Shown here: positions 6,993 to 53,178 of the stretch, piece after piece
Layout of the letters: every line of letters starts with the position of its first letter
Position numbering within the stretch: position 1 is the stretch's first letter
NCBI GenBank assembly: GCA_043820105.1
Contig: JBDREC010000004.1
Coordinates: 5,682-69,681 of the forward strand
Direction of reading: 5' to 3'
Origin: Pseudomonadota bacterium
GTDB taxonomy: Bacteria; Bdellovibrionota_F; JAHFAK01; JBDREC01
DNA: 64,000 nucleotides
The notes under the pieces: generated by a model
Database searches by the model: none
What the model was told of the DNA's origin: nothing
What the model saw: only the letters and a program-made list of their open reading frames with translations
Position numbers and translations under genes: made by a program

Positions 6993-8483
6993 ATGGGGAA
7001 GTGCTGTATTTGTTTTATATCATTGTGTATTTTTCTTTCATGCTCGTCCTTCAATAACTTTGATTATCGATTTTTAGTTGGGTCTTCATCATCTGGCGAT
7101 GAGTCCTATTTAATTTTATCAGGTATTATAACCAGAAATGATCTGCAAAACATTGATAACATATTAACAAGAAATGATCTTTTTCTTAATCGTGAGATTC
7201 TTGAAGTAAATAATGTTGCTATTGATAGTTTAGGCAGTGATTCTGATGAAATTATTCAAAGAAATGATTTATCTGCCACTTTATCAGAAGACATTCTAAT
7301 TAAATCAACATCACTTTTCATGACTTGTGATGCAATTTTGTCAATTAAAAGCTCAAAAGGTTATGAAGAAAGTGATGAAATTAATCTCTATGATTCAAAT
7401 TTCTTATATGCTGATGTGGATTCAGATGGCTATTTTGAGATAAAGGTTTACGCCAGTTCTTACATCGCCCAGCTAACCAATTTTACAATTAGAAATGAAC
7501 TTACTGGAGATCCAATTGTTTCATTTAATTTTCAAAAGGGCAGTGCGCTTTTTGAAGGAATTGAAATGCAAGATGCTGACATCGATTTGGGTGAAATCAG
7601 GTTTAGTTCAGAAAGAGCCAGTATTGATATTAATGATATTCCTGATATTATTGGTATTGAAGAAATAGATGTAGAAGATTCAATTGATGATGAAGCATCA
7701 TTGGAAGCCGGTAGTGAAAACGCTCAAGGGGAAAATGTTTTGACAGATAAAAATGAAAATGAAGATGAAGAAGAAGTTGAGACATATCAGTCCTGCAATA
7801 ATTTAGATTCTATAGATAGCTTATTTTTATCTACTAATATTGATGAAAATGAAGGAAGTATAATCTCAGATTATTCATCTTCTGAAAATGAAGGAACATT
7901 ATACAATGGTTCTTGGGGAAATGGTTCTATTGTAGATGGTATGCAAACAACTTACTTTGATGGCAGCTCAACATTCATTCGTTTTCCTGATATTGGACCA
8001 GCCTTAGAGGATGAAATTACTGTTATGGCATGGGTAGATAGGGCCTCTATATCTTTAGGAGATACAATTATAAGTAAATGGAATATGGATCAAAATGATG
8101 GCGATTCTTTCTTTTTATCTGTTGGTTGGGATGCTGCTTCATTTATGGTTGATACCTGGAATGGATCATATAACGAAGGTGAAGCTATTCATATAAACTC
8201 TAATCGACAGTGGTATCACATTGCAGGTTCTTATACAAAAAACACAATTAAGCTTTATGTAAATGGAGAGCTAATTGGCAGTCAAAATATATCAGGTGAC
8301 GATTTAAAATATGATGCTACAATTCCTTATGATATTGGAAAACAATATAATCCAAATGATGAAGATAGTGAAGACAACTATTGGTTCAAGGGATATATAT
8401 CAGGAGTAAAGGTTTTTAATACAGAAATTTCTGAAGAAGCAATATCTGCATATTATGAGTGTATGGATAATTTTGTAGATTAA
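6993..8483 (+). CDS. Lipoprotein with C-terminal LamG/concanavalin A-like lectin domain, ISRND-motif family
   Basis: Lipobox FLSCSS. IITRNDL/ILTRNDL/IIQRNDL repeats. C-terminal YFDGSSTFIRFPD...TVMAWV...WYHIAGSYTKNTIKLYVNGELIGS matches the Laminin_G_3 pattern. Confidence 0.7.
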   Translation: MGKCCICFISLCIFLSCSSFNNFDYRFLVGSSSSGDESYLILSGIITRNDLQNIDNILTRNDLFLNREILEVNNVAIDSLGSDSDEIIQRNDLSATLSEDILIKSTSLFMTCDAILSIKSSKGYEESDEINLYDSNFLYADVDSDGYFEIKVYASSYIAQLTNFTIRNELTGDPIVSFNFQKGSALFEGIEMQDADIDLGEIRFSSERASIDINDIPDIIGIEEIDVEDSIDDEASLEAGSENAQGENVLTDKNENEDEEEVETYQSCNNLDSIDSLFLSTNIDENEGSIISDYSSSENEGTLYNGSWGNGSIVDGMQTTYFDGSSTFIRFPDIGPALEDEITVMAWVDRASISLGDTIISKWNMDQNDGDSFFLSVGWDAASFMVDTWNGSYNEGEAIHINSNRQWYHIAGSYTKNTIKLYVNGELIGSQNISGDDLKYDATIPYDIGKQYNPNDEDSEDNYWFKGYISGVKVFNTEISEEAISAYYECMDNFVD

Positions 8484-9505
8484 TTTTCTAAATAAAAGTC
8501 ATATATTTTTTTTACACCCGTTTCGTCAAAATCTTTATTAAAAATCATAATTTCATCAATAATACCGTAATAATGATCACCTAAACTTTCAAGACTTGCT
8601 ACATAATCTTCTTTAAAAACAGGACTACAGGCTTCATTGTCATTAATTAAAGATATGTCCTCTTGTCTGTTTTCAATTAATTCTCCGTTTAAAAAAAATG
8701 AAACTTCGAGGATATTTTCAGATATTGCTTTGACGCTAATTCCAACAAACTGAAATGTGTTTTTTTCAAAAGAATAATATGCATCTGTGTTTATATTTAA
8801 ACCACAGCCTTCTATTGATCCCAAATCAAGTCCTGGTCTAAATGATGGAAGGATGTTGCTGTTTTCATCTTGTTCTAAAGCAGCGATAAAAGAAAATGAT
8901 CCACCTCGAATAATTGTTTGTAGATTGTTTAAAATCCTTGTTTCAGTATCCAGACTAATCCACGCAAAGAAAGAAGCACTATCACCAAGCTTAAGACTGT
9001 TGCCAGTATTGCCGTTTACATCATGCATGATTTTTAAAGGATCTGTAAATCCATTTAAATAATAACATTCTCCGCTTGGGCATCTAGAGTTATCTTCAAT
9101 ATATTCATTATGATTTTCAAGATCAACCATTTCACCATATTCTTCAGTGTGCCATGTATGTGTATGGTCAGAAACCCCTATACTGCAGCCATTATGAAAG
9201 TAAAAAGTAAAATCAGTGTCCGCTGTATCATAATTTGGATCTGTTTTTACATACATGGAGTCTTCATAGGAGGTTCGCTTATCAAGATCAAATGAATAAT
9301 ATTCAATGAGTCCATCAACAAGGCCACATCCAATTTCAAATTGTTCACTGGTATCTTGGAGATTGCTTGATGAGCCAAATGGATTGTCTAAATTGCTTGA
9401 GCTACATGATTCTTCGTTGTTAAGCAAAAGTAAAAGTCCATTGGCATAAAGATAAAATGGAAGCAGTAAAAAAAGCGTGATTTTGATGCAGAATTTCATT
9501 TGCAC
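8480..9505 (-). CDS. Secreted LamG/concanavalin A-like domain protein
   Basis: Signal peptide MQMKFCIKITLFLLLPFYLYANG. LKLGDSASFFAWISLD...NTFQFVGISVK...VSFFLNGELIEN is a LamG-like fold signature. Confidence 0.65.
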   Translation of the reverse strand: MQMKFCIKITLFLLLPFYLYANGLLLLLNNEESCSSSNLDNPFGSSSNLQDTSEQFEIGCGLVDGLIEYYSFDLDKRTSYEDSMYVKTDPNYDTADTDFTFYFHNGCSIGVSDHTHTWHTEEYGEMVDLENHNEYIEDNSRCPSGECYYLNGFTDPLKIMHDVNGNTGNSLKLGDSASFFAWISLDTETRILNNLQTIIRGGSFSFIAALEQDENSNILPSFRPGLDLGSIEGCGLNINTDAYYSFEKNTFQFVGISVKAISENILEVSFFLNGELIENRQEDISLINDNEACSPVFKEDYVASLESLGDHYYGIIDEIMIFNKDFDETGVKKIYDFYLEN

Positions 9506-9794
9506 TCCGTATAAAATGTTTTGTGTAATTAATAACTTACAAGAATAATATATGCTTTTTGAATTCGGTTTTAAGTTTTATAACAAAGATTTTTAATAAT
9601 GTCAAATCATCAAAAAGTCAAAAAGTTGGCAGCCAACGTTCAATCCAAAATGGCTCACTCATTTTTAAGCTCATTCACACTTGACCTTTTATATGAAACT
9701 GATAATAAGCAAAATGCTGCAGACAAAAGCCTTAAGTTGTTAGCTGAAGGCTGATCGCTGAAAGCTGATTGCTTATTACTAATAGGTGCTAAAT

Positions 9795-29647: not shown

Positions 29648-30145
29648 ATGGATAAAAGAGGATTTAGTCTTGTAGAGTTGATGATAGTAGTTGCTATTAT
29701 TGGGATATTAGCTGCAATCGCAATTCCATCATTTATGAATTACATTAAAAAATCAAAACAATCCGAAATATTAACAATGCTAAATGCAATATATGCTTGC
29801 GAAGCAGACTATAATATTGAGAATCAAAAATTTCACACTACAGGTATAATACCAGCTGGTTCATATAATCCTGCTAATTTAGACGGAAATAGAAAACCTG
29901 GCTCTCAGGTAGAGTTTATGAATGATACAGATGGCTTTGCAATAATTGGTTTTGTGCCTGATCAGGATGTTTTTTCTGCTTTTATTGTCAGTTCAACTGA
30001 TGTAACGACAAGTGCTTTTATTAAAATATATTCAGATTTAGATGATGATGGTACGATTGGACTTCACAGCCAACAAATAAAAAGGGACAAGGATACAGGA
30101 AATGCTTATAAGGTTGTTGAGGCGATTCAAAGTATAGACGATTAG
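29648..30145 (+). CDS. Type IV pilin/pseudopilin-like protein
   Basis: Prepilin leader [27 protein letters not shown] (G-1, F+1, E+5). Single Cys, so no C-terminal disulfide loop. Confidence 0.75.
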
Positions 30146-30420
30146 AAGTTCACAGATTAATCCTAAACCTGATATCTCTATTCTTTAAATTAACTTCTTT
30201 TATTTCTAAAAAAAGAATCTGAGCAAAAAACATCTCAATTTATTTTAATCAAATTGATTTTTTCGAGTAAGGAAAAGGCATCTAATATATTTACCCAAAG
30301 ATGTGATTTCTCAAGTTGCTGTAATTAAAGTATTTTTATTGGAATGGTTTTTTGAGATATTGGTATATTACTTGCAAAAAGGTAGCTTGAGATATTTTTT
30401 AACAGACACTAGGGGGAACG

Positions 30421-30924
30421 ATGAAACTAAAGCGTAAAGGACTCACCTTATTAGAACTAATGATCGCAGTTGCTATAATTGGCATTATCAGTGCCATAGC
30501 ATCATCATCTTTGATGGGTTTAATCAAAAAATCAAAGAAATCTGAAATAAGCCATATGGTGAATGGTATCTATGTTTGTGAAGCAGATTATAGTATTGAT
30601 TCACAAAAATTCCATATAACATCTGTTGTGCCTGCTGGTTCATTTAATCCAGCAAACCTTGATGGAAATAGGATTCCAGGATCCCAACAAGAGTTCAAAG
30701 AAGACACAGAAGGTTTTGCAATAATAGGATTTGTTCCTGACCAGGATGTTTACTCGGGATTTAAGGTAGATGCTACAGATGTAACAAGTATGGCATATAT
30801 AAAGGTGATGCAAGATCTTGATGATGATGATACTATTGCTGTTTATTCTCAAAGAATAAAAAGAAATAAGGAAACAGGAGATGCATACAAATTTTCCGAC
30901 TTAGTCATAAGCGTTGAAGATTAA
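30421..30924 (+). CDS. Type IV pilin/pseudopilin-like protein, tandem paralog of 29648-30145
   Basis: KGLTLLELMIAVAIIGIISAIA. Shares CEADYxIxxQKFHxT, [13 protein letters not shown] and [13 protein letters not shown] with the upstream paralog. Confidence 0.75.
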   Translation: MKLKRKGLTLLELMIAVAIIGIISAIASSSLMGLIKKSKKSEISHMVNGIYVCEADYSIDSQKFHITSVVPAGSFNPANLDGNRIPGSQQEFKEDTEGFAIIGFVPDQDVYSGFKVDATDVTSMAYIKVMQDLDDDDTIAVYSQRIKRNKETGDAYKFSDLVISVED

Positions 30925-34056: not shown

Positions 34057-34281
34057 AAGATACCCCTTAATTTTAATAAGTTTTTAGCCCTTAACATGTG
34101 TGGCGCAACATGTCAAGAAAAGAGGTGGTCTGCGACATTGGGTTCGCTTTTTAAACAAGATAATGTTTTTAAGCTTATGAAATATAAAGAGTTTGAATTG
34201 TTGTTGAATGGCATATTATTTGCATCTTAATTGACCAACAAAAATTTATTTATGTATATTAAACTTTCTGGGGCGGCAATT

Positions 34282-37200
34282 ATGAACAAAACCTTTGTTT
34301 TGATTTTACTTGCATTATTTCTAAATTCATCCTTTGCTTTTACAAATGAATGTATTGATGTCTTTGGGAACAAGCAAAGACAAGCTGATCAAACCACTTC
34401 CTATGCAGAGAAAAAACAGGAAATACCCAACACTTCTAGGCCTTCACAAAATAGTTCAGAACATTTTGTGTCTTTTGTTTCAATTGGACAAATTCAAATG
34501 TACTCAAAATATGTTGCAGGCTTACATGAAATGCATATTTTATTTCAAAATATGACTGAGCTTGTTTTTCATGTTGAAATGCAAGGAGGCCGAGATAAAA
34601 GAAAACTAGTTGTAGCAAATAATGCACACGCATATATTAAGGATTTAGTAAGTGGACAAATTATTAGTGAGGTAAGTGCTGCGAATATTGAAAATAGCGC
34701 GACTTCCATTTACTTTAATCACAGGAATCAAAACCTGTTTCAACTTTCTTTCTCTTTTCATGAAAGAGAAGAACATGATGCAAGACCACCAAGAATAAGT
34801 TTAAACAATAATCAAAATAGTGAAATAAATTATCCAACATTATATCAACATATAAATACATTGGGTCAAGCAAATGGGTCAAGTTTTGGTGATGTGAAAA
34901 TATTAGATATTGAATTTTTAAGAGATAAAAGAAATAGGACTAGGCAATCTTATGTGTGTGAGTATAGGCTTTTGCTTTCAAATGGTGATACAATTGTATT
35001 TAAAGTAGACACTGGTCATCATGGTAAAGGTAATTATACTACAGCTGGGCTTGATGCATATTTGCATCGTTTCGCAGATGGAAATATTATTAAATTAATT
35101 CTAAGTGGATCTGGCAATTTGATTCCAGGTAAAATTAGAATCAATGGACAAGGCTATGATATTCATTTAACTATAGGCTCTCATGAGCAAGAAGTTGTTA
35201 AGGCCCACCCTGATATTGAGACATCTATTATTAGAGAAGCACCATCTCGCCCTAGAAAAAACATTGAAGATTTAAAAAGCCTCGAAAATACAATTCCTCC
35301 AGACAAAAGGTTAATCGAAAAAAAAGCTTTGGCAACTCAAACCTTAACAATTGAAGATGATACTGAAGCCGAATCTAAGGGCTTTGATTCTTTATTATCA
35401 GATTATCCTATTGTGTCTCGAGGAATTTATCCAGATGCAACATCAGCTGATACAATTACATCCTTGGGAAAGATAAGGGGCTCAATAACCTCAAGAACCA
35501 CTAAGTTTACAAGCTTAGTGGCACGTCAACTTTTTAGTGCTGCAAATATTCCAGATAAAGTTGCAATTACTTTAATTGTTGATGTGCATGGAAGTAAGAA
35601 GCATGAGGTGGTGATTAAGACAGAAGAAGGTTGCAATGAACTGATAATCAGAGAGTTTTCTTATTTGCAGCCAATTAAGGATAATGGTCAAATTGTGGGA
35701 TTTAGAAGGATTAGAAAAGAAAATATTATTGCAACATTTGTTAAAAGAGAAGATCATTGGTCTATAATCATTGAAGACATTGAGTTGCGATCTTTTAAGG
35801 CTGAATTTTCAAGGCAAAGCCAAGCAGTTTTTGGCTTTGTTATAGTTTCAAGAAATGAGAATGCACTTAATGCCTCTGAAAAACAAGGATTAAGAAAAAA
35901 TTTTCAAGAAAGACTTAGGCGTTTTGGATATAAAAAGGAAATTGATAAAGAAGAGAAAAAATCGATTCAAAAAAAAGCTCCCAAAGAAGCCATTGAAAAT
36001 GAAATTCGACTGGTTCAAGATACTCTTCAGATTACCTTAGATCAAGGTGCTAAAGAACAAGGTCACCAAGACGAAGGAGAGGCAAAAAGACAAGAAACCT
36101 CAAAAGAGGAAGAAAGAGAAGTTTTACAAGCCGAAGATTCAAGTGAATTTGAGAACCTATCAAGTGAATCAGTGAATAGTGATATGCAAGCAGGCTTTCC
36201 GGAAAACAAAATATTAACCGCTGATCCAGAAGATTGGCTTTTGGGGAGAGCCATATTAAATGCTAAACCTGATCAGTCAATTCCTGTAACCTTGAAATAT
36301 AGATCTGAAACTACAAATGCTGATGTGGTTTTTGTTACATTGAATGTAACGGCTGTAAACCAAAGAGATGTTGGTGATCGCCTTGTGCTTGAAGAAGGTA
36401 TAGTTGAAGTTTTTTATAATGATGAGTTAATAGAAGCAGAAGTGCTTAACCTTTCAGGTTCAAAAGTAATTGGTCTTTATTATTTACACTTAATCAAGGC
36501 CAATAGATATTATCCAATTCTATTTGCAAACTGGGGAAGCAGTGCAGATAATCAAGAATTTTTCATTTCCACCAAGCATGATGGATATCGAGACTTAGTT
36601 ACTATGTTAAATGATAGAATATTATATCCATCGGATATTCTAAAAATTTTTACTGATAGTTTAGAGCATAGAAGATTATTGGCGTATAGATATTTTCAAA
36701 GTTATGGTGGGCCTTTTATGTATTTATATGAATATGATGTTAAAGATATGTCTGGTTTAGATTTTTTAGGTGGAAGTGATTTTCTTGGTTTTAGATTCCC
36801 AAATGGTGAAATAATAGAAGCTAAAGTAAAAAAAGAAGATGCTTCAGGTTTTGCTTTTGATATTAAATATCAAAGTGGCTCACATAATTATTTTGATGTT
36901 GAATTAAGAATAAAGCCAAAAGATTCCAATTCCTTTTATTACATTACACACACATGTTTAGCTTATAGATTTTCACATTATGAAGTTCTAGCCTTATCTT
37001 TATTAAATGTTGCCTTTATAATAAATAAAAATACTGGCGAAATGCATCTTTTACCCTTAAAGCCACCAGGCAAAAAACCTCTTTATAAATCTTCTTCCTT
37101 TAGAGGGTTTCTAAGAAAATTGCCAAAAGCACTTGCAAGTTATGAAATTGATGAATCAGAGTTTGAACACCTTAATAATGGTTCATCAAAAGAAAATAAC

Positions 37201-38757
37201 TCTAGAAAAGAGCCTTCACAGGTTCAGGTAGATGTAGTGGAAGAAAATATACCTTCTTCTTCAATAGCTTCTGAACCAATGGAGGGTACTGGAATAATTG
37301 CAAGACTAGGAAGAATGTTAAGAAAAATTAATATTCCCAAAAAGTTTTCAAAGAAAAAAGATGCCCCTGATGAAGAAAGGCAAGGATCATCTGAAGAAGA
37401 AACTGATGAACAAAGAGAAAATAGATTTGTTAATGTAGCCAGAGTTTTTGATTCTGGTGCTACCACTGAGGATATTGTTGGATCAGGAGAAAGCTTAATT
37501 AATGATACTCTTGAACTATGCAAAAGGGCAAGGCTTGCTGATGTTTCCATCGCTGATCAAATCGATATTAAAAGGCCCTTGGAAATAGATTTTGAAAAGA
37601 TAAATTTTGAAACATTCGCAGCCCTTATGGATAAAGGATATGTTCATCTAGAACAGGACTATTTTCATTTTGAAACTATGATGATGGCAGATTTAAACAA
37701 AGAACTTATTATAAATAGTAGAATAACAATTGGCCCTTTAGAATTATTTTTAACAGGATACATTGATAAAGCTAGTTCAAAAATTAAGTGGGATGATATG
37801 CTAACACAGGGTTCTTTTAAAGGAAATTCTGTTGTTGTTACAACATTACCTGGCTGGGAAAAGACTTTTCCTTTATTGGTAATTGATCCAAGGTCTTTGA
37901 CTAGATTAGATCTTTATTTGACTGTAACACAAGATGGCTTAGTTGTGTATTCTGCAAGAAAATATGTTAGATATGGAAAAAAAGCTCAGCCAGATTATGG
38001 TTTAGACGATCCCAGGAAAATGCTAAGTGATCTGGAAATAAACAAGGACATTGGTATGCTTTTTTCAAACACAAATGTAGAGGGAATGGATTTTATTTTT
38101 TCTGAAGTTGCTCAGACAAATCAACTTTCGACTGGTGAAACTTTTGCACAAGAAGGATATCAGGGCTTTGTAATTAAACCAGGTACTGCTATAAGATTTC
38201 CTTTGCTATATAAGCGAAATAAATGGGTTTTTGATCAAGAGAATTTCCATGTTAGTTTTCTTGGATCTTTTGGTGTCCATTATCTTACAGGAACAAATAA
38301 TGTTCATTTAAGAAGATATGGAAATATTGAAGTTGTAAGGATTCCGAGTCTTAGTATTGCAGTAATTCTTGATCCAAAGACATCTTATTTGCACCCTGTA
38401 CCACTGAGCTATGTTGATATTAAAGCAAAAAAACGAAATAAACGAATTGAGCAGTATCTTGCAGATAATCAAGATAGGATTATTCCCTGGCCAGAGCTTG
38501 GCGAACTTGATGTAACATTATTTTTAAGATTAAAAGTTATAGATATTGTAGATAACATGCAAATACCGGCTAATGAAAGTGAAGCTTTTTGGGCTGGTTA
38601 TGAAAAGCTATTGACACCTCCAATTAACTTTTCAAAGGAAGAATTTATTGCTGCCATGACTAGGATTATTGATTGTGCGGATGCCAACGGTAGGGCTGAA
38701 TTTGAAGAAGTGAGACAAGTTCTTGAAGAAGTTTTGCTAAGACTGGGTTTAATTTAA
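34282..38757 (+). CDS. Giant secreted protein (about 1490 aa) with no recognised domains
   Basis: Signal peptide MNKTFVLILLALFLNSSFAF. Long charged linker (KEEEREVLQAEDSSEFEN). The track start at 34231 is TTG; ATG 34282 is chosen. Confidence 0.55.
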   Translation: MNKTFVLILLALFLNSSFAFTNECIDVFGNKQRQADQTTSYAEKKQEIPNTSRPSQNSSEHFVSFVSIGQIQMYSKYVAGLHEMHILFQNMTELVFHVEMQGGRDKRKLVVANNAHAYIKDLVSGQIISEVSAANIENSATSIYFNHRNQNLFQLSFSFHEREEHDARPPRISLNNNQNSEINYPTLYQHINTLGQANGSSFGDVKILDIEFLRDKRNRTRQSYVCEYRLLLSNGDTIVFKVDTGHHGKGNYTTAGLDAYLHRFADGNIIKLILSGSGNLIPGKIRINGQGYDIHLTIGSHEQEVVKAHPDIETSIIREAPSRPRKNIEDLKSLENTIPPDKRLIEKKALATQTLTIEDDTEAESKGFDSLLSDYPIVSRGIYPDATSADTITSLGKIRGSITSRTTKFTSLVARQLFSAANIPDKVAITLIVDVHGSKKHEVVIKTEEGCNELIIREFSYLQPIKDNGQIVGFRRIRKENIIATFVKREDHWSIIIEDIELRSFKAEFSRQSQAVFGFVIVSRNENALNASEKQGLRKNFQERLRRFGYKKEIDKEEKKSIQKKAPKEAIENEIRLVQDTLQITLDQGAKEQGHQDEGEAKRQETSKEEEREVLQAEDSSEFENLSSESVNSDMQAGFPENKILTADPEDWLLGRAILNAKPDQSIPVTLKYRSETTNADVVFVTLNVTAVNQRDVGDRLVLEEGIVEVFYNDELIEAEVLNLSGSKVIGLYYLHLIKANRYYPILFANWGSSADNQEFFISTKHDGYRDLVTMLNDRILYPSDILKIFTDSLEHRRLLAYRYFQSYGGPFMYLYEYDVKDMSGLDFLGGSDFLGFRFPNGEIIEAKVKKEDASGFAFDIKYQSGSHNYFDVELRIKPKDSNSFYYITHTCLAYRFSHYEVLALSLLNVAFIINKNTGEMHLLPLKPPGKKPLYKSSSFRGFLRKLPKALASYEIDESEFEHLNNGSSKENNSRKEPSQVQVDVVEENIPSSSIASEPMEGTGIIARLGRMLRKINIPKKFSKKKDAPDEERQGSSEEETDEQRENRFVNVARVFDSGATTEDIVGSGESLINDTLELCKRARLADVSIADQIDIKRPLEIDFEKINFETFAALMDKGYVHLEQDYFHFETMMMADLNKELIINSRITIGPLELFLTGYIDKASSKIKWDDMLTQGSFKGNSVVVTTLPGWEKTFPLLVIDPRSLTRLDLYLTVTQDGLVVYSARKYVRYGKKAQPDYGLDDPRKMLSDLEINKDIGMLFSNTNVEGMDFIFSEVAQTNQLSTGETFAQEGYQGFVIKPGTAIRFPLLYKRNKWVFDQENFHVSFLGSFGVHYLTGTNNVHLRRYGNIEVVRIPSLSIAVILDPKTSYLHPVPLSYVDIKAKKRNKRIEQYLADNQDRIIPWPELGELDVTLFLRLKVIDIVDNMQIPANESEAFWAGYEKLLTPPINFSKEEFIAAMTRIIDCADANGRAEFEEVRQVLEEVLLRLGLI

Positions 38758-39997: not shown

Positions 39998-40288
39998 ATG
40001 AGTATAAATCCAGAAACCATTATAATAAAAAATAAAAATCTTTTAGATCGTGATGTCAAAGATGGCAGTGTGCTGTATGATATAAAAAAAGGGAATGTGC
40101 ATGTTCTAAATAGTTATGCTTCCTTTGTTTGGTTATCTATGGAAGATGAATGTGTTTTTCAGGATTTAGTAAACTCAGTAAAGCAAGAGTTATCAGATTC
40201 TCAAATTGATCATAATGAGAAAATTTCTGAGCTTATTAAAAAATTTATTTATGATGGATTAATTGAGATTAAAAATAGTGAGTCTTGA
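39998..40288 (+). CDS. PqqD-family protein (RiPP recognition element-like)
   Basis: VHVLNSYASFVWLSMEDECVFQDLVNSVKQEL...ISELIKKFIYDGLIE fits the PqqD pattern hxLNxxxxxIWxxxDGxxTxxEIxxxLxxxY...DVxxFLxxLxxxGLI. AAGGA RBS. Confidence 0.7.
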   Translation: MSINPETIIIKNKNLLDRDVKDGSVLYDIKKGNVHVLNSYASFVWLSMEDECVFQDLVNSVKQELSDSQIDHNEKISELIKKFIYDGLIEIKNSES

Positions 40289-41106
40289 TGATTTTATATT
40301 ATAATGTAAATGCTATAAGTTTTTCAATTCAAGCTAATAAAAAATTAGCAATTTTAATTAAACAACAAATATATCCTTCAGCAATTATTTCTGAAAAAAC
40401 TATTGAAACTGAAATTAATTATTTAGTAAAAAACTCAAATGGATATTTTGAGATTTATGAAAATAAGTTGAGACTTTATAAATGCAAAAGACTTGAATAT
40501 TTAGTTTCAAAGTTGGAATGGTATATTACTGGCAAAATTTTGAGAGAACTAAATGGTTTTTTGCAAATACATGCAGCCGGAATTGTCAAAAATAATAAGG
40601 CAACCCTTGTTATTGGTGATCATGGAATTGGCAAGACTATTATTTTAACCTATTTTTTATTAAAAGGTTATCGTTGCTTATCAGATGATATTATTTTGCT
40701 TAACCCAAAAGATTTAAGCGCTCATTGTTTTGCACGTGGATTTAAAATTAATAAAGATACTTATAGAATATTGCCAAAACTAAAACAGGAGTTTTTGGAA
40801 AAAACAATAAATAAGAATTGGGATTTTCGTATTAATGCAAAAGATATTAGAAAAAATGCATTTACAAAAAAAGCAAAGATTGAAAAAATTATTTTTGTCA
40901 AAAAAAACCATGAAAAAAAGCAAATAATTTATAAAATAGGTCAATCCGAAGCTTTTATAGATTTACTATTAAATTCTTTGAATTATAAGGAACATGAAAA
41001 ATATGGAATTAATATATTGGCGGATTTGATAGATAATAGCCAAGCGTATTGTCTTAAACGAGTTGGGTTTTTATCAATGATAAAGCAGATTGAAGCTATC
41101 TTATAA
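40288..41106 (+). CDS. HPr kinase/phosphorylase C-domain-like kinase (HprK-related)
   Basis: LQIHAAGIVKNNKATLVIGDHGIGKTIILTYFLLKGYRCLSDDIILL parallels the HprK P-loop region GxSGxGKSxxALxLxxRGHxLVxDD. Its start overlaps the PqqD stop (TGATG). Confidence 0.65.
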   Translation: MILYYNVNAISFSIQANKKLAILIKQQIYPSAIISEKTIETEINYLVKNSNGYFEIYENKLRLYKCKRLEYLVSKLEWYITGKILRELNGFLQIHAAGIVKNNKATLVIGDHGIGKTIILTYFLLKGYRCLSDDIILLNPKDLSAHCFARGFKINKDTYRILPKLKQEFLEKTINKNWDFRINAKDIRKNAFTKKAKIEKIIFVKKNHEKKQIIYKIGQSEAFIDLLLNSLNYKEHEKYGINILADLIDNSQAYCLKRVGFLSMIKQIEAIL

Positions 41107-42388: not shown

Positions 42389-44251
42389 TTATGATATTGG
42401 GTCACTTTTGTCTTCAGAAATATCAACAATCATTACTCTTTCTTTTATTCCTGAAAGGTAAACAACTTCATATCCTATAAAAAGTTCATCTTCTGAATAT
42501 TTCGGTAATAGATTTCCAAGTTCATTTGTGTCAATTGTATAAATACTCAGGGCTTGTATTTGATTGAGCATGCCTTTTACATTTTTTCCAAAAATTAGAC
42601 CCGCTACTTTTGCAAGCACTGTGGGTTTAACTTCAGATCTATATAGATTTGCTCTAACTGAATCTCCATTTAATGCAACATATGCTTCAAGCTTTTTTTG
42701 TTTTGTTGATTTTTGTATGAGCCTTCCTATTCCCGCATTTTTCGAAAGATCTTGATAGCCTTGAGCAAAATCACCTATAAAACTAAATAATTGGAGCGAG
42801 TTTTCTGCAACATATTGAACAACTTCAAAAATTTCAGGATCATCATAAGTGGCTTCACTGAGGTTTCTATCATAAGCTGCTAAAATATTTTTTTTCATCA
42901 TGTCATAATAAAGCCAAACTGGTGTTGATTTATATTCGTCTTCATAGAGTAGTTGAAGCCAAATAGTTTCACTGTCTTCTTTTACAAGAATATCTAATAG
43001 TCCAATTTTAACATTTGTAAGTCTTTTAAGACCATAACTTTTACTCACTGATGCTGGGACTTCAGTTGTTAAAGATAAAACTATGTTTGGAGTTTCTTTT
43101 TGATTTGAGTTAAAATATGAAAAATCTGGACTAGCCTCTTTTTCGAACAAGCCAACACTTGCAAACAATGCTTTAACTTGTGTTTTCAGTGTGTTAATGC
43201 TGTCATCATCTCCAGGAAGAACATTGTCAATTGTATTTAAGTAAACTTTAGCAACTGTAAAAGCAGAAGCATATGGATAATTCATTAACTCATCTGTTGC
43301 CGCCAAAACTAATCTATCAGCCAATTCTTTGTTTGGGCCTAATGCTTTTCTTAATTGCCATAACACATATCCAAATACTTCACCTAGATCGTGGACTTCC
43401 ATGTTGGACTGATATGCTACTTTCTTTTCTGCATTTCTTATTGGATCTGATCCACCAAAAACAAGACCAATCATTGGGCTTTCAAGAGTCATCATTGCCA
43501 TGTAGTCAGCAAAGGCTTCGTTATAGCCGCCATCAACTTCTGCATTAAATAAAACACGATCACCTAGTATTTGATCAAATATAAAGTGTCCTGTTTCATG
43601 TATTATAACACTTGGATCATATCCAGCTGAAACAAGACGTTCTTTTGATAATATTTTCGTTAAAAAGCTATTTTTTGCAGGAAGAAAGCTTAAGGTCATA
43701 TCTTCTGAATTAAAAAAAGCATTGTTTTCGCTTCTTATATTAGTGATAGGATCATTGACTTCTCTGTCAACATAGACTTGGAGCTTTTCATTAGTAGTAA
43801 AATCAAGACTTTCAAGTTTTTTAAGGAAGGTGTTAATCCAATAGTAAACAGTGCATTGCCTTATTATGCTGCCATTTTTATCTCTTGCTTCATCTTTTTC
43901 CCAAAACATCTTATCTGATACTGTATCAACTGCTACAAAAAAATTTCCTTTTTCTCTTAAAGGAACTAGATTTTGCTCTTCATCGCAATCATTATTACAT
44001 AAAATAATGTTATCATTTTGAAAAAAAACATCTTGGTATGGATTGCTAAATGCCTGACTAGGAGAAGTTGTTTCAACAAAGCGAAGCAAAGCTGCTGGCA
44101 CTTGATTTTCACCTAAGTCTCGCCACAATTCTTTTGCTTGCGCTGATTTGTAGTTCATTACAACAGGTAAATATGTTTTTGGAAAAATTGAAGAATAGAA
44201 AAATATGCTTAGGAAACTAAGTACTATTATAAGGTTATATCTTTGTTTCAT
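42389..44251 (-). CDS. Secreted thermolysin-like (gluzincin) zinc metalloprotease
   Basis: Signal peptide. HETGHFIFD (HExxH) followed by GGYNEAFADYMA (the NEAxAD third-ligand motif of the M4-like clan). Confidence 0.65.
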   Translation of the reverse strand: MKQRYNLIIVLSFLSIFFYSSIFPKTYLPVVMNYKSAQAKELWRDLGENQVPAALLRFVETTSPSQAFSNPYQDVFFQNDNIILCNNDCDEEQNLVPLREKGNFFVAVDTVSDKMFWEKDEARDKNGSIIRQCTVYYWINTFLKKLESLDFTTNEKLQVYVDREVNDPITNIRSENNAFFNSEDMTLSFLPAKNSFLTKILSKERLVSAGYDPSVIIHETGHFIFDQILGDRVLFNAEVDGGYNEAFADYMAMMTLESPMIGLVFGGSDPIRNAEKKVAYQSNMEVHDLGEVFGYVLWQLRKALGPNKELADRLVLAATDELMNYPYASAFTVAKVYLNTIDNVLPGDDDSINTLKTQVKALFASVGLFEKEASPDFSYFNSNQKETPNIVLSLTTEVPASVSKSYGLKRLTNVKIGLLDILVKEDSETIWLQLLYEDEYKSTPVWLYYDMMKKNILAAYDRNLSEATYDDPEIFEVVQYVAENSLQLFSFIGDFAQGYQDLSKNAGIGRLIQKSTKQKKLEAYVALNGDSVRANLYRSEVKPTVLAKVAGLIFGKNVKGMLNQIQALSIYTIDTNELGNLLPKYSEDELFIGYEVVYLSGIKERVMIVDISEDKSDPIS

Positions 44252-44426: not shown

Positions 44427-46619
44427 CTAATTGGATTCTGCGTATTGAAATATTAGGGAAATAATATCAGGAGATGTATTGGGGTTATCAATAAGGCATA
44501 CTATGGGAAGATTAACTTTATATTCTTCAGTTTGATATGGTATTGCTGTTGTTACATTGACAATTGGAGTATCAAGAGAAATGCTTGTGCCAATGGAATC
44601 ATACAATTGGCTTCCGCTTGATATGGTAAGGGGTTTTGTAATTACTGATCTTTCACTTCCATTTGAAATGTCAACAGTGTATGTTGCAACTTTAAAAGCC
44701 GAATCAAGCCAGATGTTATTAAAAGTATTGGCACTGTCAACTTCTATAACCTCAACTGTTCTTTCTATTTTTGTTGGAATATCAAGATTATTGCTTTGAT
44801 TTAATATTGCTGCTTTCAGTATTTTTTTGCCATTGTTTTCTACTACATAAGAAGCTATTATTACCTTTGCTTCTTTAGCATGGTATAATCTTGGTGGATT
44901 GACCATTTCACTATCATCGAGGCTTATTTCTTCGATACCAACAGTATTCATTTCAGTGTCATTTTCTAAGGACATGACAGTAATTGTATTTCCATGAATC
45001 ATATATAATCTTTTTTTGCTTAAAGCAAAGTCAATTTCATTAAGACTTGTAATGTTGCTGGCAAGTTGTATTGGTTCCTTAAATTCTAATTTTACACCAT
45101 CTTCAATTTGAATTAGACTAATTGGAAATGCTAAGGCAGTTTGTTCTGTTGAGCTGAGAACTACAATATAGCCATAGTTAAGATTTTCTTGGCATAGGAT
45201 TTTTATCTCTTTGCTAAAAGAAGTTGATCCTTTTGTGACAGTATGTTCATTGCTGATATTACCTTCTCCTACTTTCAGGAGATTAAAAATATGTTTAGTG
45301 TTAGTTGCCTCAGCTGATATAAAATAAGTTGAGGTTTGATACTTAATTGCATCTGATAAAAATATTTTATCATCTGATGTTATGTTTTGAGAACTGCTTT
45401 CTGTGTCTTCAATACTTAAAGTTGTGATTACTTCAGGTTGTTGCTCTTTATATTTATTTAATAATATGTATTTTGTTGCAAAGAGTCCATTCGGCTTTTC
45501 TTCTTTGGCAGCAATAAAATATGAGTTAGGGTGTAAATACTTTATTTTAGGAGAAAAAGCCAAGCTTGATAAATCAGTTAATTCATATATTGTGCTTTTA
45601 TTAGTTTCAAATACGGGAATAGATTCGATATTTGTAGTTGTTGTGATTAATACATTATCTATTACCATAAATATAGAAAGTCGAAGTCTTGAAAAGTTAT
45701 TTTCACTGTTTGTTGAAAGGCTAATATTTGCAATTATATCCATTGTGCTATCAGCATAACTTTCTTTTTCCAGGCTTACTGAAATTTCAGAGCAGGTTCC
45801 ATATATACATTCATAATTAAAGTATATATGGTCAGTTGAGGCCACGCCATCTAATAGAGTCTTTGATAATGAATCATTTTCTGCTAAGTAAAGGTTGTGA
45901 TAAATCATAGCTTCTTTTTCATAAGAACTTACAGCTGTTTCATTTGAGAGTGAATACTCAAAATCAGCGTCAGCTGTTGATACATTAAGGTCTCCAAGGT
46001 CAATGTCACTTGAGCCATCTGATAAGGCGTCTGAAAGCTTGAAAATATCATTTAATGTTGCAATTCTTTCTTCATAATATTCTCCATCTGCATCAAGCAT
46101 TGGAAGATAAACAGAAACAAAGTGATATTCTTCGTCTTCGTCTAATGCAACTGAAAAATAACCACTTGAATTTAAAACCGCGTTAGGACTTGACTCATCT
46201 AATGTCAGGGTTTCAGTGATATCGCTGTTAAGTGAATGTACCTTAATAATCAGTGCTAGATTATCACTTGTTATTTCACTGCATTTTAATGCAGTGCTTT
46301 TGGGTGCTTTGGTAATATCAGATCTGGTAATAATATCTGTGCCTGTATCTTCATTTGAGTCTGTTCTTGTAATTATTCCCATATCATAAAGATCAGTTCT
46401 TGTGATTATTGTATTATCAGCAGATAGAGTGCCCAGGTCGTTATTATTGATAAGTTCTATTGTTTCTTCTAGATCTATGGTTCCGCTTATTGAGTAATCA
46501 GCAGAAGTGTTTGGGGTGTTTCCATTGTTTTCTTCTGAAGAAGTGAAAATTGTACAAGAATTGATAGAGATTGAGATTATGATTAAAATTAAGCTTTTTG
46601 TAAGTTGAATCTTGCTCAA
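44427..46619 (-). CDS. Large lipoprotein of unknown function, ISRND/TRTD-motif family
   Basis: Lipobox ISINSC. IITRTDLYDMGIITRTDSNEDTGTDIITRSDI near the N-terminus. Confidence 0.6.
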   Translation of the reverse strand: MSKIQLTKSLILIIISISINSCTIFTSSEENNGNTPNTSADYSISGTIDLEETIELINNNDLGTLSADNTIITRTDLYDMGIITRTDSNEDTGTDIITRSDITKAPKSTALKCSEITSDNLALIIKVHSLNSDITETLTLDESSPNAVLNSSGYFSVALDEDEEYHFVSVYLPMLDADGEYYEERIATLNDIFKLSDALSDGSSDIDLGDLNVSTADADFEYSLSNETAVSSYEKEAMIYHNLYLAENDSLSKTLLDGVASTDHIYFNYECIYGTCSEISVSLEKESYADSTMDIIANISLSTNSENNFSRLRLSIFMVIDNVLITTTTNIESIPVFETNKSTIYELTDLSSLAFSPKIKYLHPNSYFIAAKEEKPNGLFATKYILLNKYKEQQPEVITTLSIEDTESSSQNITSDDKIFLSDAIKYQTSTYFISAEATNTKHIFNLLKVGEGNISNEHTVTKGSTSFSKEIKILCQENLNYGYIVVLSSTEQTALAFPISLIQIEDGVKLEFKEPIQLASNITSLNEIDFALSKKRLYMIHGNTITVMSLENDTEMNTVGIEEISLDDSEMVNPPRLYHAKEAKVIIASYVVENNGKKILKAAILNQSNNLDIPTKIERTVEVIEVDSANTFNNIWLDSAFKVATYTVDISNGSERSVITKPLTISSGSQLYDSIGTSISLDTPIVNVTTAIPYQTEEYKVNLPIVCLIDNPNTSPDIISLIFQYAESN

Positions 46620-48279: not shown

Positions 48280-48441
48280 TTTATCTCCTTTGTAGAATTA
48301 TTAAGGTTCGTTTTTTTGAAGGGCGTAATTGAATAAACCATGCTCGAATCAATACATCATTATATAATAAGAAGAAAATCGATAGCAGTAATGTTTTTAG
48401 ATGACAAGAAAAATATTTAGCTGGTAGTTAGTAGTGGATAT

Positions 48442-48492
48442 GGAGGTAGCCTCTTCTCCCCTCCAATTAATTATTATTTATTAATTATTGGT
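48442..48492. repeat. Intergenic element: GGAGG...CCCCTCC hairpin plus AT-rich ATTAATTATTATTTATTAATT block
   Basis: Directly visible. The same 21-mer and the same G/C hairpin type recur at 52571-52684. Confidence 0.7.
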
Positions 48493-48811
48493 TATTAAAA
48501 AAAGAATTTCCAAAAATTAATAGAAATAAACTAAAAACTAAAAAGTCAAAACATAAACAATGTTAAATATATATAATTCAAGCGATCAGGAAATCCTTCA
48601 CCCCTTGTGCCAGTGAAATAGCGCACATAAGAAAGCATTGACATCGTTAATATGCACCAAGCTTGCCCTGTGATTAAAGGCAGAAAAACCTTACATAAAG
48701 TTGAAACTCAAGCCGTCCTAAAAGTGTCGAAATTGTGAAAAAAAAGTTACGGAATAAGTTCTTGATATTATTGAAATGTGACAAGGATGTGAAAAAAATA
48801 TGAAAAAGATG

Positions 48812-48840
48812 TTGACAAAATAAGTTTCTTTGCTTATAAG
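48812..48840 (+). promoter_or_regulatory. Near-consensus sigma70 promoter driving the ORF-free segment
   Basis: TTGACA (48812-48817), 17-nt spacer, TATAAG (48835-48840). Confidence 0.5.
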
Positions 48841-48846
48841 CTATCT

Positions 48847-50016
48847 TACAAGGCAGGGAAAAATAGCCCACGGTAGAGAAAGCCAACACTGACTAATCCT
48901 AACTAGTTAAGCATTCAGCTTGCTGAGCGCTTAATAAAATGTGTCAGTACTATGCTAAGTCAAGTTCTTAAGGGAAGTCAATGCCAGCTGGTAACAGCTA
49001 GTAAATTTTCCGGAGAAAAAATGATCTTTGAGCTTGAGCATATTTGAGTAGCTAGGAATAACGAGGCTAAAAACCTCCCAAAGGATGTTAGCTGTATTAG
49101 GGTCAAACCTATCGCCGTTAACTAGTTGCATTGTTTGTAAAACTCTAAAGGCACGCAAAAGCTACAGTCTGGCAACAGGCGGTAGTTAGAAATGCCATAA
49201 GAGGAGGAAGATTTTAACCGGATCTTCTAAATAGCATTGTAGCGAAAACCTTAAAGGGGAAAAAGCTAAGAAAGCTAAAACCGCTAGAAACAGACTTTTG
49301 TTTGTCAAGGCGGGGAAGCCTCATAATTGGTAAGAGGCCCTGAGGTTCATGAAGCCTCGTGAATTAATCGAGCTTGCTTGATTTTGGAACGAGATGGATA
49401 AGAGCGTGAGGGCATGTTAATAGTGACGAGCTATTAATACTGATTATGCGGAAGTTAAAGCTTTGGAAGCTAAATCCTAAAAGTGTAGCTTGGTTGAAAT
49501 AACACCAAGACGTTTTACTGGGAAAGATTAAACTTCGAAAGGTTAATCAAAACCTATGGAAGCTACAAAAAGCAGCCTCGGATAAGCTGCTTGCACGTTA
49601 GTCCCAGTTTGACAAAAAACGCTATAAGGACGTAAAACCTCGGTGAAAGGTCAAAGAAGCCTAAAAACTTCGAGACAGGTTAGTGCGAACACTCTATAGT
49701 AGAGTCAAAGTTCATAAGAGGATAAGCAGGTGGTCAAACATCTGCAAGACGGTAAACAATTGAAAGCCTGGAAGTTGTTAAAACAACATGTAGGCCGCTA
49801 ATTAACCAGAAAATTAACTAAATTGTTTACATATAAAACTCTAAAGAACCTGATAACTGCACAAGAGGCGTTAATGTAAGACCAAAAGGGTCAAACCTTT
49901 AGGATTATTTTAACTAGCATTTTCCTGGATGATCTTTGGAGAGGAAAACTCTTTCAGGTTATTGGATCCTGCCTTATAAAAAGCCAACTAGCAAATTTTG
50001 CTAGTTGGCTTTTTTA
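48847..50016 (+). ncRNA. Candidate large (about 1.2 kb) structured non-coding RNA of unknown family
   Basis: No ORF of 60 aa or more on the + strand. GC visibly higher than flanking CDS. Recurrent GGTCAAACCT, AAACCUC and GAAGCCUC motifs and many local hairpins. Bounded by the promoter above and a strong terminator. Confidence 0.4.
49982..50016 (+). terminator. Rho-independent terminator
   Basis: agccaactagcaaa/tttgctagttggct is a perfect 13-bp stem followed by TTTTTT. Confidence 0.8.
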
Positions 50017-50224
50017 GTTTGTGCTTTGTGTGAATAGAGTAACTATAATTGTTGTTGGCACAATATTGTCCCAGTTTAAACAAAATAATAGCTTGTAAAA
50101 GTTCTGCAGTGCCTTGATATGATAGCGATAAATACTGTTGAAAAGCCATTGGCATCAAATTTGCAATTGTCTAAAAAAGTGGCTATTATAGCTTGTTTAT
50201 TTAACTTAATTTATGGAGTATATT

Positions 50225-50788
50225 ATGAGGCACTTATTTTTATTTTTTATCATGATTAATCTTTTTAGCTATTTGTATGCAGGTGAAAATTTAGATTTTC
50301 CCTTGCTTGGGATGAATGTCAAATGCGTTCAATCAACCGGTTCCACGGATACTGATTCTTTTGTTACTTACGAGGATCAGGTAATTACTTCAGAAACAAG
50401 TTCTACTATGATGCAGAGAAGCTTTTCATTTGATGATTCGTATTTTGTTTTATCGCTAAATAAATCAGGCCAGATATTATCAGGCGCTGATAATAGTTTT
50501 TTAGGATTTTCATACTATTTGACTCTTTCCAGGGTATATAATGAATTTTCTTTAGATGAACCAAAGGTAAAAGGCAAAACAACTGCCTTGGTTAATTTTA
50601 TTGTAAATAAAGATGGTTCTATAAGAGGTCATTATCATGAGTCATTTGACATTCCAAGTGATCCATTAAGCACATATCGAGATGGAGTTGCTCCTTATAT
50701 CGGCTTTAGATATTTTGTAAAACAATCTGCAGTAAATTGGCAGGAGATTATCTTGTCATGTTCTTTAGAAAACGTTTCTGTGTATTAA
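50225..50788 (+). CDS. Secreted hypothetical protein
   Basis: Signal peptide MRHLFLFFIMINLFSYLYAGEN. GGAG RBS before ATG 50225. Confidence 0.5.
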   Translation: MRHLFLFFIMINLFSYLYAGENLDFPLLGMNVKCVQSTGSTDTDSFVTYEDQVITSETSSTMMQRSFSFDDSYFVLSLNKSGQILSGADNSFLGFSYYLTLSRVYNEFSLDEPKVKGKTTALVNFIVNKDGSIRGHYHESFDIPSDPLSTYRDGVAPYIGFRYFVKQSAVNWQEIILSCSLENVSVY

Positions 50789-52704: not shown

Positions 52705-53178
52705 ATGAAGATAGATATTTTACTTCCATTTAAAATAAAAAAGAGTTTTGTTAAAGAAGGAAGCCAGGAATACTTAAAAAGAATAAAAAGATATTCAAAT
52801 GTAAATGTGGTTAATATAAAAGAGGAAGCGAAAAAGAATGTTGTTGATCCTTCCCTAATAATGGAAAAAGAGGCCACACGAATAAATGAAAAATTAAGAA
52901 AGAGTTCTTTTACTATTTGTTTGTCAGAAAATGGAAAGAGAGTTGATATAAATAAACTTGAAAAGATAATTAGAGATAAACAAATATCCGGCAATCCAGA
53001 TTTTTCCTTTGTTATTGGCTCTGCCTTTGGACTTGATAAAGAGCTTCAAAAAAACGCGCACTTAAATCTTTCAATTTCAGAATTTACACTTTCCCATGAA
53101 ATGGCATTCTTGGTGTTGACAGAACTTTTATACAGAGTATTTGCAAAGATGAATAATGAGCCTTTTTCCAGGTATTGA
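52705..53178 (+). CDS. rlmH: 23S rRNA (pseudouridine1915-N3)-methyltransferase RlmH (SPOUT)
   Basis: 157 aa. IGSAFGLDKEL and LSISEFTLSHEMAFLVLTELLYRVFA...NEPFSRY align with E. coli RlmH IGGPEGL...[22 protein letters not shown]...NHPYHR. Confidence 0.75.
   Translation: MKIDILLPFKIKKSFVKEGSQEYLKRIKRYSNVNVVNIKEEAKKNVVDPSLIMEKEATRINEKLRKSSFTICLSENGKRVDINKLEKIIRDKQISGNPDFSFVIGSAFGLDKELQKNAHLNLSISEFTLSHEMAFLVLTELLYRVFAKMNNEPFSRY

Follow-up and report, generated by a model that had tools for sequence, protein, structure and literature searches.

A candidate gene for a large structured noncoding RNA between a promoter and a terminator in the chromosome of an uncultured bacterium

What occupies the longest gap between protein-coding genes in a compact 64-kb stretch of DNA (158-kb contig JBDREC010000004.1 of assembly GCA_043820105.1, from an uncultured Pseudomonadota bacterium; this whole stretch of 64,000 nucleotides is called the window below)? 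From position 48298 to position 50209 (1912 nt), none of the six frames contains a stop-free run of 80 aa or more, and no other such gap in the window exceeds 340 nt. Within it, an earlier note on this DNA had recognised a promoter and a strong terminator enclosing about 1.2 kb devoid of open reading frames (ORFs), and had proposed that this segment is a candidate large structured noncoding RNA (ncRNA). As a candidate the proposal is supported by the analysis reported here, in view of a strand-specific fold, a helix (P1) closing the two ends, recurring structural modules and the lack of any matching Rfam family. We consider it probable that the locus is a real structured ncRNA gene, standing alone and encoding a single large RNA of the + strand, of about 1.17 kb, stable and highly structured; as modelled, the transcription unit is self-contained and without coding capacity, and its + strand RNA has exceptional structure, a terminal helix that closes it, and repeated modules.

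The unit opens with a sigma-70-like promoter on the + strand (48812-48840), composed of the -35 hexamer TTGACA (48812-48817), a 17-nt spacer and the -10 hexamer TATAAG (48835-48840), with an A-rich tract directly 5' of it; transcription is predicted to start at about 48847-48848. The arrangement described in the earlier note is thus present, but it is not a full consensus: 11 of the 12 positions match, the final T of the -10 hexamer, usually highly conserved, being replaced by a G, and for this reason the promoter is not listed by a consensus scanner. The exact string TTGACA-N17-TATAA occurs only twice in the window, both strands considered, and both occurrences are intergenic, correctly oriented and in promoter position; the second (9578-9605, - strand) lies in the spacer upstream of a - strand gene (8480-9505), and suggests that this organism may use near-consensus sigma-70 promoters. 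A 514-nt AT-rich spacer (48298-48811; 28-31% G+C) separates the RNA promoter from a divergent gene for a POT/MFS transporter; it carries two direct repeats ending in TGTGAAAAAAA (48720-48744 and 48774-48798), the second of which stands directly upstream of the -35 hexamer, and these could be an UP element or sites for a regulator. In the same spacer, TCCTAAAAGTGT at 48716 has an exact second occurrence at 49475, within the RNA.

At the opposite end lies an intrinsic terminator (49978-50015, + strand); in the fold its stem has 17 bp, of which 13 make up a G+C-containing core, and T6 comes next. The 13-bp stem originally described is in fact the core of a perfect 18-nt inverted repeat (49978-49995 / 49997-50014), of which 17 pairs form upon folding; owing to an A5 run upstream, the terminator is formally bidirectional. 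Promoter and terminator together delimit a predicted primary transcript of about 1.17 kb (48847-50015, + strand).

The terminator is also the point from which the locus could be read as a giant cis-acting leader or attenuator, governing by terminator read-through the orphan secreted protein encoded at 50225-50788 and the SSF symporter that follows. Indeed, the downstream genes are on the same strand, the terminator stands 210 nt ahead of the next start codon, and AACUAGCA at 49912-49919 duplicates part of the 5' arm of the terminator and could compete for its 3' arm. When Rfam 15 was searched at E up to 10, moreover, 24 weak matches were returned over 48300-50300, all of them far below threshold and nearly all centred on the terminator hairpin, and some of those overlapping it are matches to 'leader' models; these, however, derive from the terminator hairpin alone and score far under the gathering values. 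For the downstream gene there is a separate promoter-like site (50160-50189), the closure of P1 ahead of the terminator suggests a self-contained RNA, and we know of no leader of comparable size, which further counts against a leader; a cis-acting role of this kind is, in our opinion, quite improbable.

As for coding capacity, no + strand ORF of 60 aa or more is found between promoter and terminator, in agreement with the earlier note, the longest within the candidate RNA being of 34 aa. Pfam searches on the six-frame translations, with stops masked (32-59 stops per frame), gave nothing better than E = 0.1; none of the 9 ORFs of the region is present in a collection of 15 billion proteins, and a phmmer search with the 67-aa ORF of the - strand against 1.84 billion representatives returned a single junk match (E = 1e-4). 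The frameshifted protein homology that the earlier note had named as the sign of a decayed gene was therefore not traced in any of the six frames by Pfam, and a decayed protein gene was rejected on the lack of residual homology in these three kinds of search (Pfam in six frames, the ORF lookups, phmmer of one ORF). As regards a messenger RNA (mRNA) for one or more very small proteins, Shine-Dalgarno (SD)-like sequences do precede three tiny ORFs, and these only (10, 18 and 23 aa), but the three would cover less than 15% of the transcript and their start codons are within predicted stems. Considering also that the longest + strand ORF falls short of 35 aa, that the ORFs of the region are absent from the protein collection and that the - strand ORF gave only the junk match, a small-protein mRNA is scarcely to be expected here.

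The composition of the segment sets it apart from its surroundings, as the earlier note had remarked: the G+C fraction of the body (48845-49976) is 0.398, as compared with 0.324 for the whole window, and keeps between 0.38 and 0.43 across 48950-49850. In AT-rich genomes, long intergenic regions rich in G+C are a published enrichment criterion for structured ncRNAs (PMC8723152).

More telling is the predicted fold. On the + strand, the body (48840-49976) reaches -339.6 kcal/mol, as against -279.5 +/- 7.5 kcal/mol in shuffled sequences (z = -8.0), while the - strand of the same body has z = -3.0; four equal-length gene segments of the window, taken in the mRNA sense as controls, gave z = +0.78, 0.02, -2.19 and -2.24. 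All the 200-nt windows over 48900-49899 have negative z on the + strand (from -1.4 to -4.4), whereas the windowed values of the flanking genes and of the AT-rich spacer (48300-48800) are scattered near zero. In the predicted structure, a single-sequence minimum free energy (MFE) model with pair probabilities that is unreliable in detail, 61% of the bases are paired, and 39 of the 360 pairs are G.U; the difference in folding between the two strands arises because these G.U pairs exist on the + strand alone.

These values bear directly on the possibility that the segment is a non-functional spacer, or the decayed remnant of a dead gene or mobile element, whose structure is fortuitous. Such a remnant would agree with the failure to find any homologue or conservation (see below) and with the nature of the host, an uncultured metagenome-assembled genome (MAG) with many orphan genes; it would not agree with a z of -8.0 accompanied by strand asymmetry, when the lowest gene control reaches only -2.24, nor with the raised G+C content in an AT-rich genome, where drift of neutral DNA would be AT-ward. 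The exact register of promoter, P1 and terminator, the absence of any Pfam trace in six frames each bearing 32-59 stops, and the length of the gap, 5-6 times that of any other in this compact window, also speak against it, so that a remnant appears rather unlikely.

The architecture of the model is dominated by the closing helix P1, in which the 5' strand (48850-48878; AAGGCAGGG, AAUAGCC, AGAG) pairs with the 3' strand (49949-49975; CUCU, GGUUAUU, UCCUGCCUU) in three blocks of 9, 7 and 4 bp (20 bp), with probabilities of 0.96, 0.99 and 0.82, respectively. P1, which is seen as an inverted repeat, begins 2-3 nt past the predicted start of transcription and stops 2 nt short of the terminator stem; its G.U pairs turn into C.A mismatches when the - strand is folded. 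Another long-range helix, P2, is predicted between 49074-49083 (CCUC CCAAAG) and 49934-49944 (CUUUGG, GAGG), with a probability of 0.74-0.79. The CCUC tracts that had been described as anti-SD-like are simply strands of predicted helices of this sort, and no anti-SD explanation is needed for them.

Within these closures, well-defined domains are predicted at 48888-49042, 49087-49228, 49322-49448, 49517-49608 and 49676-49927. Among the hairpins of the + strand, two carry a G(CUUG)C tetraloop (48914-48927 and 49366-49383; probability 0.94-0.98) and two a GNRA tetraloop (GUAA at 48986-48999 and GCAA at 49167-49180; probability 0.99-1.0), and the gcagc-ctcggataa-gctgc hairpin pointed out in the earlier note is located at 49572-49590. 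The branched sub-domain at 49322-49448 is closed, with high confidence (probability 0.93-0.99), by a 10-bp helix, CAUAAUUGGU/ACUGAUUAUG. The 3' domain (49676-49927; probability 0.95-1.0) is a long pseudo-symmetric stem containing modules 2 and 3, described below, another 10-bp helix (49752-49761/49821-49830) and two of the three hexaloop hairpins.

So many independent local hairpins, together with short repeats inside the segment and an internal duplication that has diverged (49118-49263 and 49814-49948, 60% identity), might instead betray a cluster of elements, either several small RNAs or palindromic repeats, similar to repetitive extragenic palindromes (REP) or miniature inverted-repeat transposable elements (MITE), lying between terminal inverted repeats; the ends of the segment do form an imperfect inverted repeat. 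A cluster, however, hardly accounts for a single strong + strand terminator placed at the very end, nor for P1 and P2, which span 860-1125 nt with probabilities of 0.74-0.99. Palindromic DNA should fold alike on both strands, which is at variance with the observed z of -8.0 and -3.0, and in the 64 kb there is no second copy of any part of the segment and no transposase or integrase nearby; a cluster is accordingly regarded as unlikely.

A palindromic tract, (U)AACUAG(UU), occurs four times in the RNA (48899-48910, 49118-49127, 49910-49919 and 49985-50007), these occurrences including both arms of the terminator, and 48901-48910 forms a perfect 10-bp complement to 49118-49127. Elsewhere in the window the tetranucleotide CTAG is avoided (observed/expected 0.55; 1.6 per kb), but within the RNA its observed/expected ratio is 2.0 and its frequency 6.8 per kb.

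Recurrence of short motifs had already been noticed in the earlier note, and it proved both real and non-random. As compared with dinucleotide shuffles, GTCAA is found 8 times (1.05 expected), GGTCAAA 4 times (0.1), AAACCT 6 times (0.77), AAAACCT 4 times (0.34) and GCTTG 6 times (1.5), and AGGGTCAAACCT is present at both 49099 and 49887. What distinguishes the GTCAAA sites of the RNA is their setting. The window contains 46 such sites on its two strands, 41 outside the RNA and 5 inside; a stem of at least 4 bp flanks only one of the 41, a trivial pairing of a T-run with an A-run, as opposed to three of the five inside, whose stems measure 4, 5 and 7 bp (in the background, a stem of at least 4 bp has a probability of 0.03). 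The three hairpins so formed are H-A (49087-49122; hexaloop G[GUCAAA]C, with a base made of GUUAGC/GUUAAC and then UAG) and, in the 3' domain, H-C (49726-49745) and H-B (49870-49914), both with the loop GUCAAA. When the three hexaloop hairpins are aligned with one external hairpin, the loop is invariant and five of the seven stem positions change on both sides with pairing kept, a degree of compensation matched by 0 of 500 shuffles; this comparison is taken as no more than supportive of selection on structure.

A second recurrent element is made of two strands. An exact 13-nt repeat, TAAAACTCTAAAG, is found at 49138 and 49834, and an exact 10-nt repeat, CATAAGAGGA, at 49196 and 49713; in both copies the former pairs with the latter, and the 5'-3' order of the two strands is swapped between copies. 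The resulting module sets CUCU-AAA-G opposite C-AUA-AGAG, i.e., a 4-bp helix beside a 3x3 A-rich internal loop. In module 1 (49143-49203; probability 0.97-0.98), CUCU-AAA-GGCA (49143-49153) faces UGCC-AUA-AGAG (49193-49203), the 3x3 internal loop and its helices enclosing the GCAA hairpin; in module 3, within the 3' domain, GUUC-AUA-AGAG (49710-49720) faces CUCU-AAA-GAAC (49839-49849). A third and similar CUCU/AGAG element, module 2, lies in the same domain, CUCU-AUA-GUAG (49692-49702) facing CUGC-ACA-AGAG (49857-49867). Since mere duplication of sequence would hardly yield a two-strand motif in swapped order, a structural element is indicated.

Outside the window, a first metagenome scan with a pattern of the internally repeated modules gave 0 matches, and a second gave one only, L029:8-78 (JGI contig Ga0256324_1013824), the sole metagenome match to the module pattern, which lies in the 5' untranslated region of a flagellin gene from an organism of higher G+C content. 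This match folds as a long, irregular hairpin (z = -4.55), at the tip of which a stem of 9 bp presents the identical G[GUCAAA]C hexaloop; no further similarity to the RNA of the window and no Rfam match were detected for it. Because its stem is far longer than the pattern demanded, the GUCAAA hexaloop may be an RNA motif of wider occurrence; a literature search on this loop motif returned noise only. An 18-nt repeat occurs as GTCCCAGTTTGACAAAAA within the RNA (49601-49618) and as GTCCCAGTTTAAACAAAA past the terminator, where the promoter of the next gene would lie (50068-50085); the UUUGAC found in the former copy is exactly complementary to the GUCAAA loops, and could possibly be their pseudoknot or kissing partner, although it may also be there by chance.

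One motif displayed repeatedly on separate hairpins of a single ncRNA is a trait of CsrB/RsmZ and CrcZ, and a sponge that sequesters CsrA or Hfq/Crc has therefore to be weighed. The candidate is large and A/G-rich, has repeated motifs, and is mildly enriched in GGA (25 versus 18 expected); the motif that it displays, however, is GUCAAA, not GGA or AANAANAA, and it is at least 3 times larger than those RNAs and closed by long-range helices. The CsrA signature was rejected, as GGA is found in only 1 of the 21 predicted hairpin loops, only 6 of the 25 GGA are unpaired, and ANGGA is not in excess (6 versus 6.4 expected); so was that of Crc/Hfq, AANAANAA being found 0 times versus 4.2 expected. A sponge of either known type is thus very improbable; one for a protein reading the GUCAAA loops is counted within the explanation preferred here.

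Does the RNA belong to a class already described? Over the whole window, none of the 4227 models of Rfam 15, among which are OLE, GOLLD, ROOL, HEARO, raiA, RNase P, tmRNA, 6S, SRP, rRNA, group I and II introns and riboswitches, has a match at the gathering threshold, and ARAGORN detects no tRNA or tmRNA. The failure of the earlier note to recognise rRNA, RNase P, tmRNA, 6S or a group II intron is thereby borne out. OLE, GOLLD, ROOL, HEARO, raiA, RNase P, 6S, SRP, rRNA, group I and II introns and known riboswitches or leaders were each discarded as identities for want of an Rfam match; for a group II intron, be it ORF-less or circularly permuted, there is no Rfam intron match at E up to 10 and no reverse transcriptase or other Pfam domain in six frames.

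In stable housekeeping RNAs (RNase P RNA, 6S RNA, tmRNA, rRNA) a terminal helix joins the 5' end to the 3' end, and GNRA and CUUG tetraloops are in use. The candidate resembles them in its own promoter and terminator, raised G+C content, paired ends and tetraloops of both kinds, but none of their covariance models matches it even at E up to 10, and its size fits none. Among the large ornate RNAs, OLE is chromosomal and stable, acts as a scaffold of a ribonucleoprotein and forms an RNA-only dimer; GOLLD and ROOL, which are among the largest bacterial ncRNAs of unknown function, are rich in hairpins, form RNA-only multimers and are encoded in phages and prophages, often near tRNA islands, many GOLLD members 'exceeding 800 nt'; OLE assembles as a dimer, ROOL as an octamer and GOLLD as a 14-mer, in each case through kissing loops and A-minor contacts (PMC12286853). 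Like OLE, the candidate would be a large, ornate, stand-alone chromosomal RNA with many predicted helices; unlike it, it measures about 1170 nt, has no Rfam match to OLE, unrelated neighbours and a diderm host of an orphan lineage, whereas OLE, of about 600 nt, occurs in Bacillota only, where it is highly conserved and linked to oapA/oapB/oapC. With respect to GOLLD and ROOL, its identical loops and A-rich internal loops could play the same contact role; on the other hand, there are no tRNA in the 64 kb, no phage genes, no Rfam match and no similarity to phage or viral DNA, and the candidate is longer than the size quoted for many GOLLD members.

By analogy, then, the RNA would work most like OLE, GOLLD and ROOL and like stable RNAs with paired termini. 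Possible contact elements within it are the identical loops, the A-rich internal loops and the palindromic AACUAGUU tracts. In the mechanism that we propose, the RNA would act in trans as an architectural scaffold, the three G[GUCAAA]C hexaloops and the three CUCU/AGAG helices with 3x3 A-rich internal loops serving as repeated docking sites; these might be bound by a multi-copy protein, or might engage in loop-receptor contacts that, in the manner of OLE, ROOL and GOLLD, would pack the RNA into a compact tertiary fold or assemble a multimeric particle, while P1 and the terminator hairpin would shield the two ends from exonucleases, as in other stable RNAs. A scaffold or docking mechanism specifically is put forward tentatively, and we hold it to be somewhat unlikely. 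With still less confidence, as an outside chance, the RNA might be the founding member of a new class of ornate RNAs of more than 1.1 kb from a deep, uncultured diderm lineage, in which the three GUCAAA hexaloops and the three CUCU/AGAG modules would be loop-receptor pairs, yielding a compact tertiary fold or an RNA-only multimer similar to the cages of ROOL and GOLLD, chromosomal and not phage-borne.

The search for relatives was extended to several collections. A blastn search in distant mode against phage and plasmid records gave no match, and four viral pattern scans gave chance matches only, nhmmer being negative at all the loci. The SSF symporter, searched in 185,579 species genomes, led to 21 loci of 57% identity or less, in Deltaproteobacteria and Oligoflexia MAGs, where no RNA homologue was found by nhmmer and no comparable ORF-free gap was seen. 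For the POT/MFS transporter, the best non-self match in a set of 5.8 billion proteins is 60% identical, and in two contigs carrying its homologues (P0002 and P0003) the surrounding genes are unrelated and the upstream spacers short. The 187-aa signal-peptide protein encoded directly downstream of the RNA (50225-50788) matched only itself in the 5.8 billion proteins, RlmH (52705-53178) likewise had no match but itself at E <=1e-20, and these two results suggest that the host lineage may be a deep or fast-evolving orphan. The missing homologues say more about such an orphan host than about the RNA.

The neighbourhood is that of an ordinary chromosome, comprising the POT/MFS transporter, the orphan secreted protein, the SSF symporter, RlmH, a PAS histidine kinase, pseudouridine-metabolism genes and DinB. 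No integrase, transposase or phage-type gene is found among the annotated ORFs and no tRNA in the 64 kb. LolA-like and pilin-like genes indicate a diderm (Gram-negative-type) host. Elsewhere in the window, two tandem ORFs of about 165 aa with an N-terminal methylation (type IV pilin-like) motif (29648-30924) are set apart by spacers (220-275 nt) in which no ORF reaches 60 aa; a 1508-aa ORF (34231-38757) has no Pfam domain at E <=1e-5; and an ORF at 41090-42058 matches the oligomerisation domain of PRMT (protein arginine methyltransferase), a eukaryote-like enzyme unusual in bacteria, and is flanked by large ORFs devoid of Pfam matches (40285-41106, 42389-44251 and 44427-46619).

Several points weigh against a structured ncRNA gene at this locus and have to be set beside the evidence in its favour. 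The gene is a candidate whose transcript is known as a prediction from DNA sequence alone, and its -10 hexamer is without the usual final T; the helices closing the central part of the molecule (49237-49627) are uncertain (probability 0.2-0.3). The 'covariation' of the modules is between copies within one molecule, in a tiny sample whose copies were chosen partly because they fold. No homologue emerged from the genome, metagenome, phage, plasmid and viral searches, and hence neither evolutionary covariation nor conservation lends support; the scaffold or docking role, finally, is something that we only infer.

If real, the RNA would represent a new family inside the loose kind of large ornate bacterial ncRNAs of unknown function, with nothing as yet showing a new principle. 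Bacterial ncRNAs longer than about 500 nt are very rare beyond rRNA, RNase P and tmRNA. For the few that are known, OLE, GOLLD and ROOL, RNA-only assemblies without precedent have recently been described (PMC12286853). The case also illustrates a limit of comparative discovery, since RNAs of orphan lineages escape the pipelines based on covariation and must be flagged by single-sequence evidence; here both the sequence and the predicted ends are defined, so that the candidate lends itself directly to in vitro transcription, probing and cryo-electron microscopy. Were the proposal true, a self-contained RNA of 1.17 kb would exceed the sizes quoted for OLE (about 600 nt) and for many GOLLD members (more than 800 nt), and it would be the first such RNA to come from a lineage of this kind and from a setting other than a phage.

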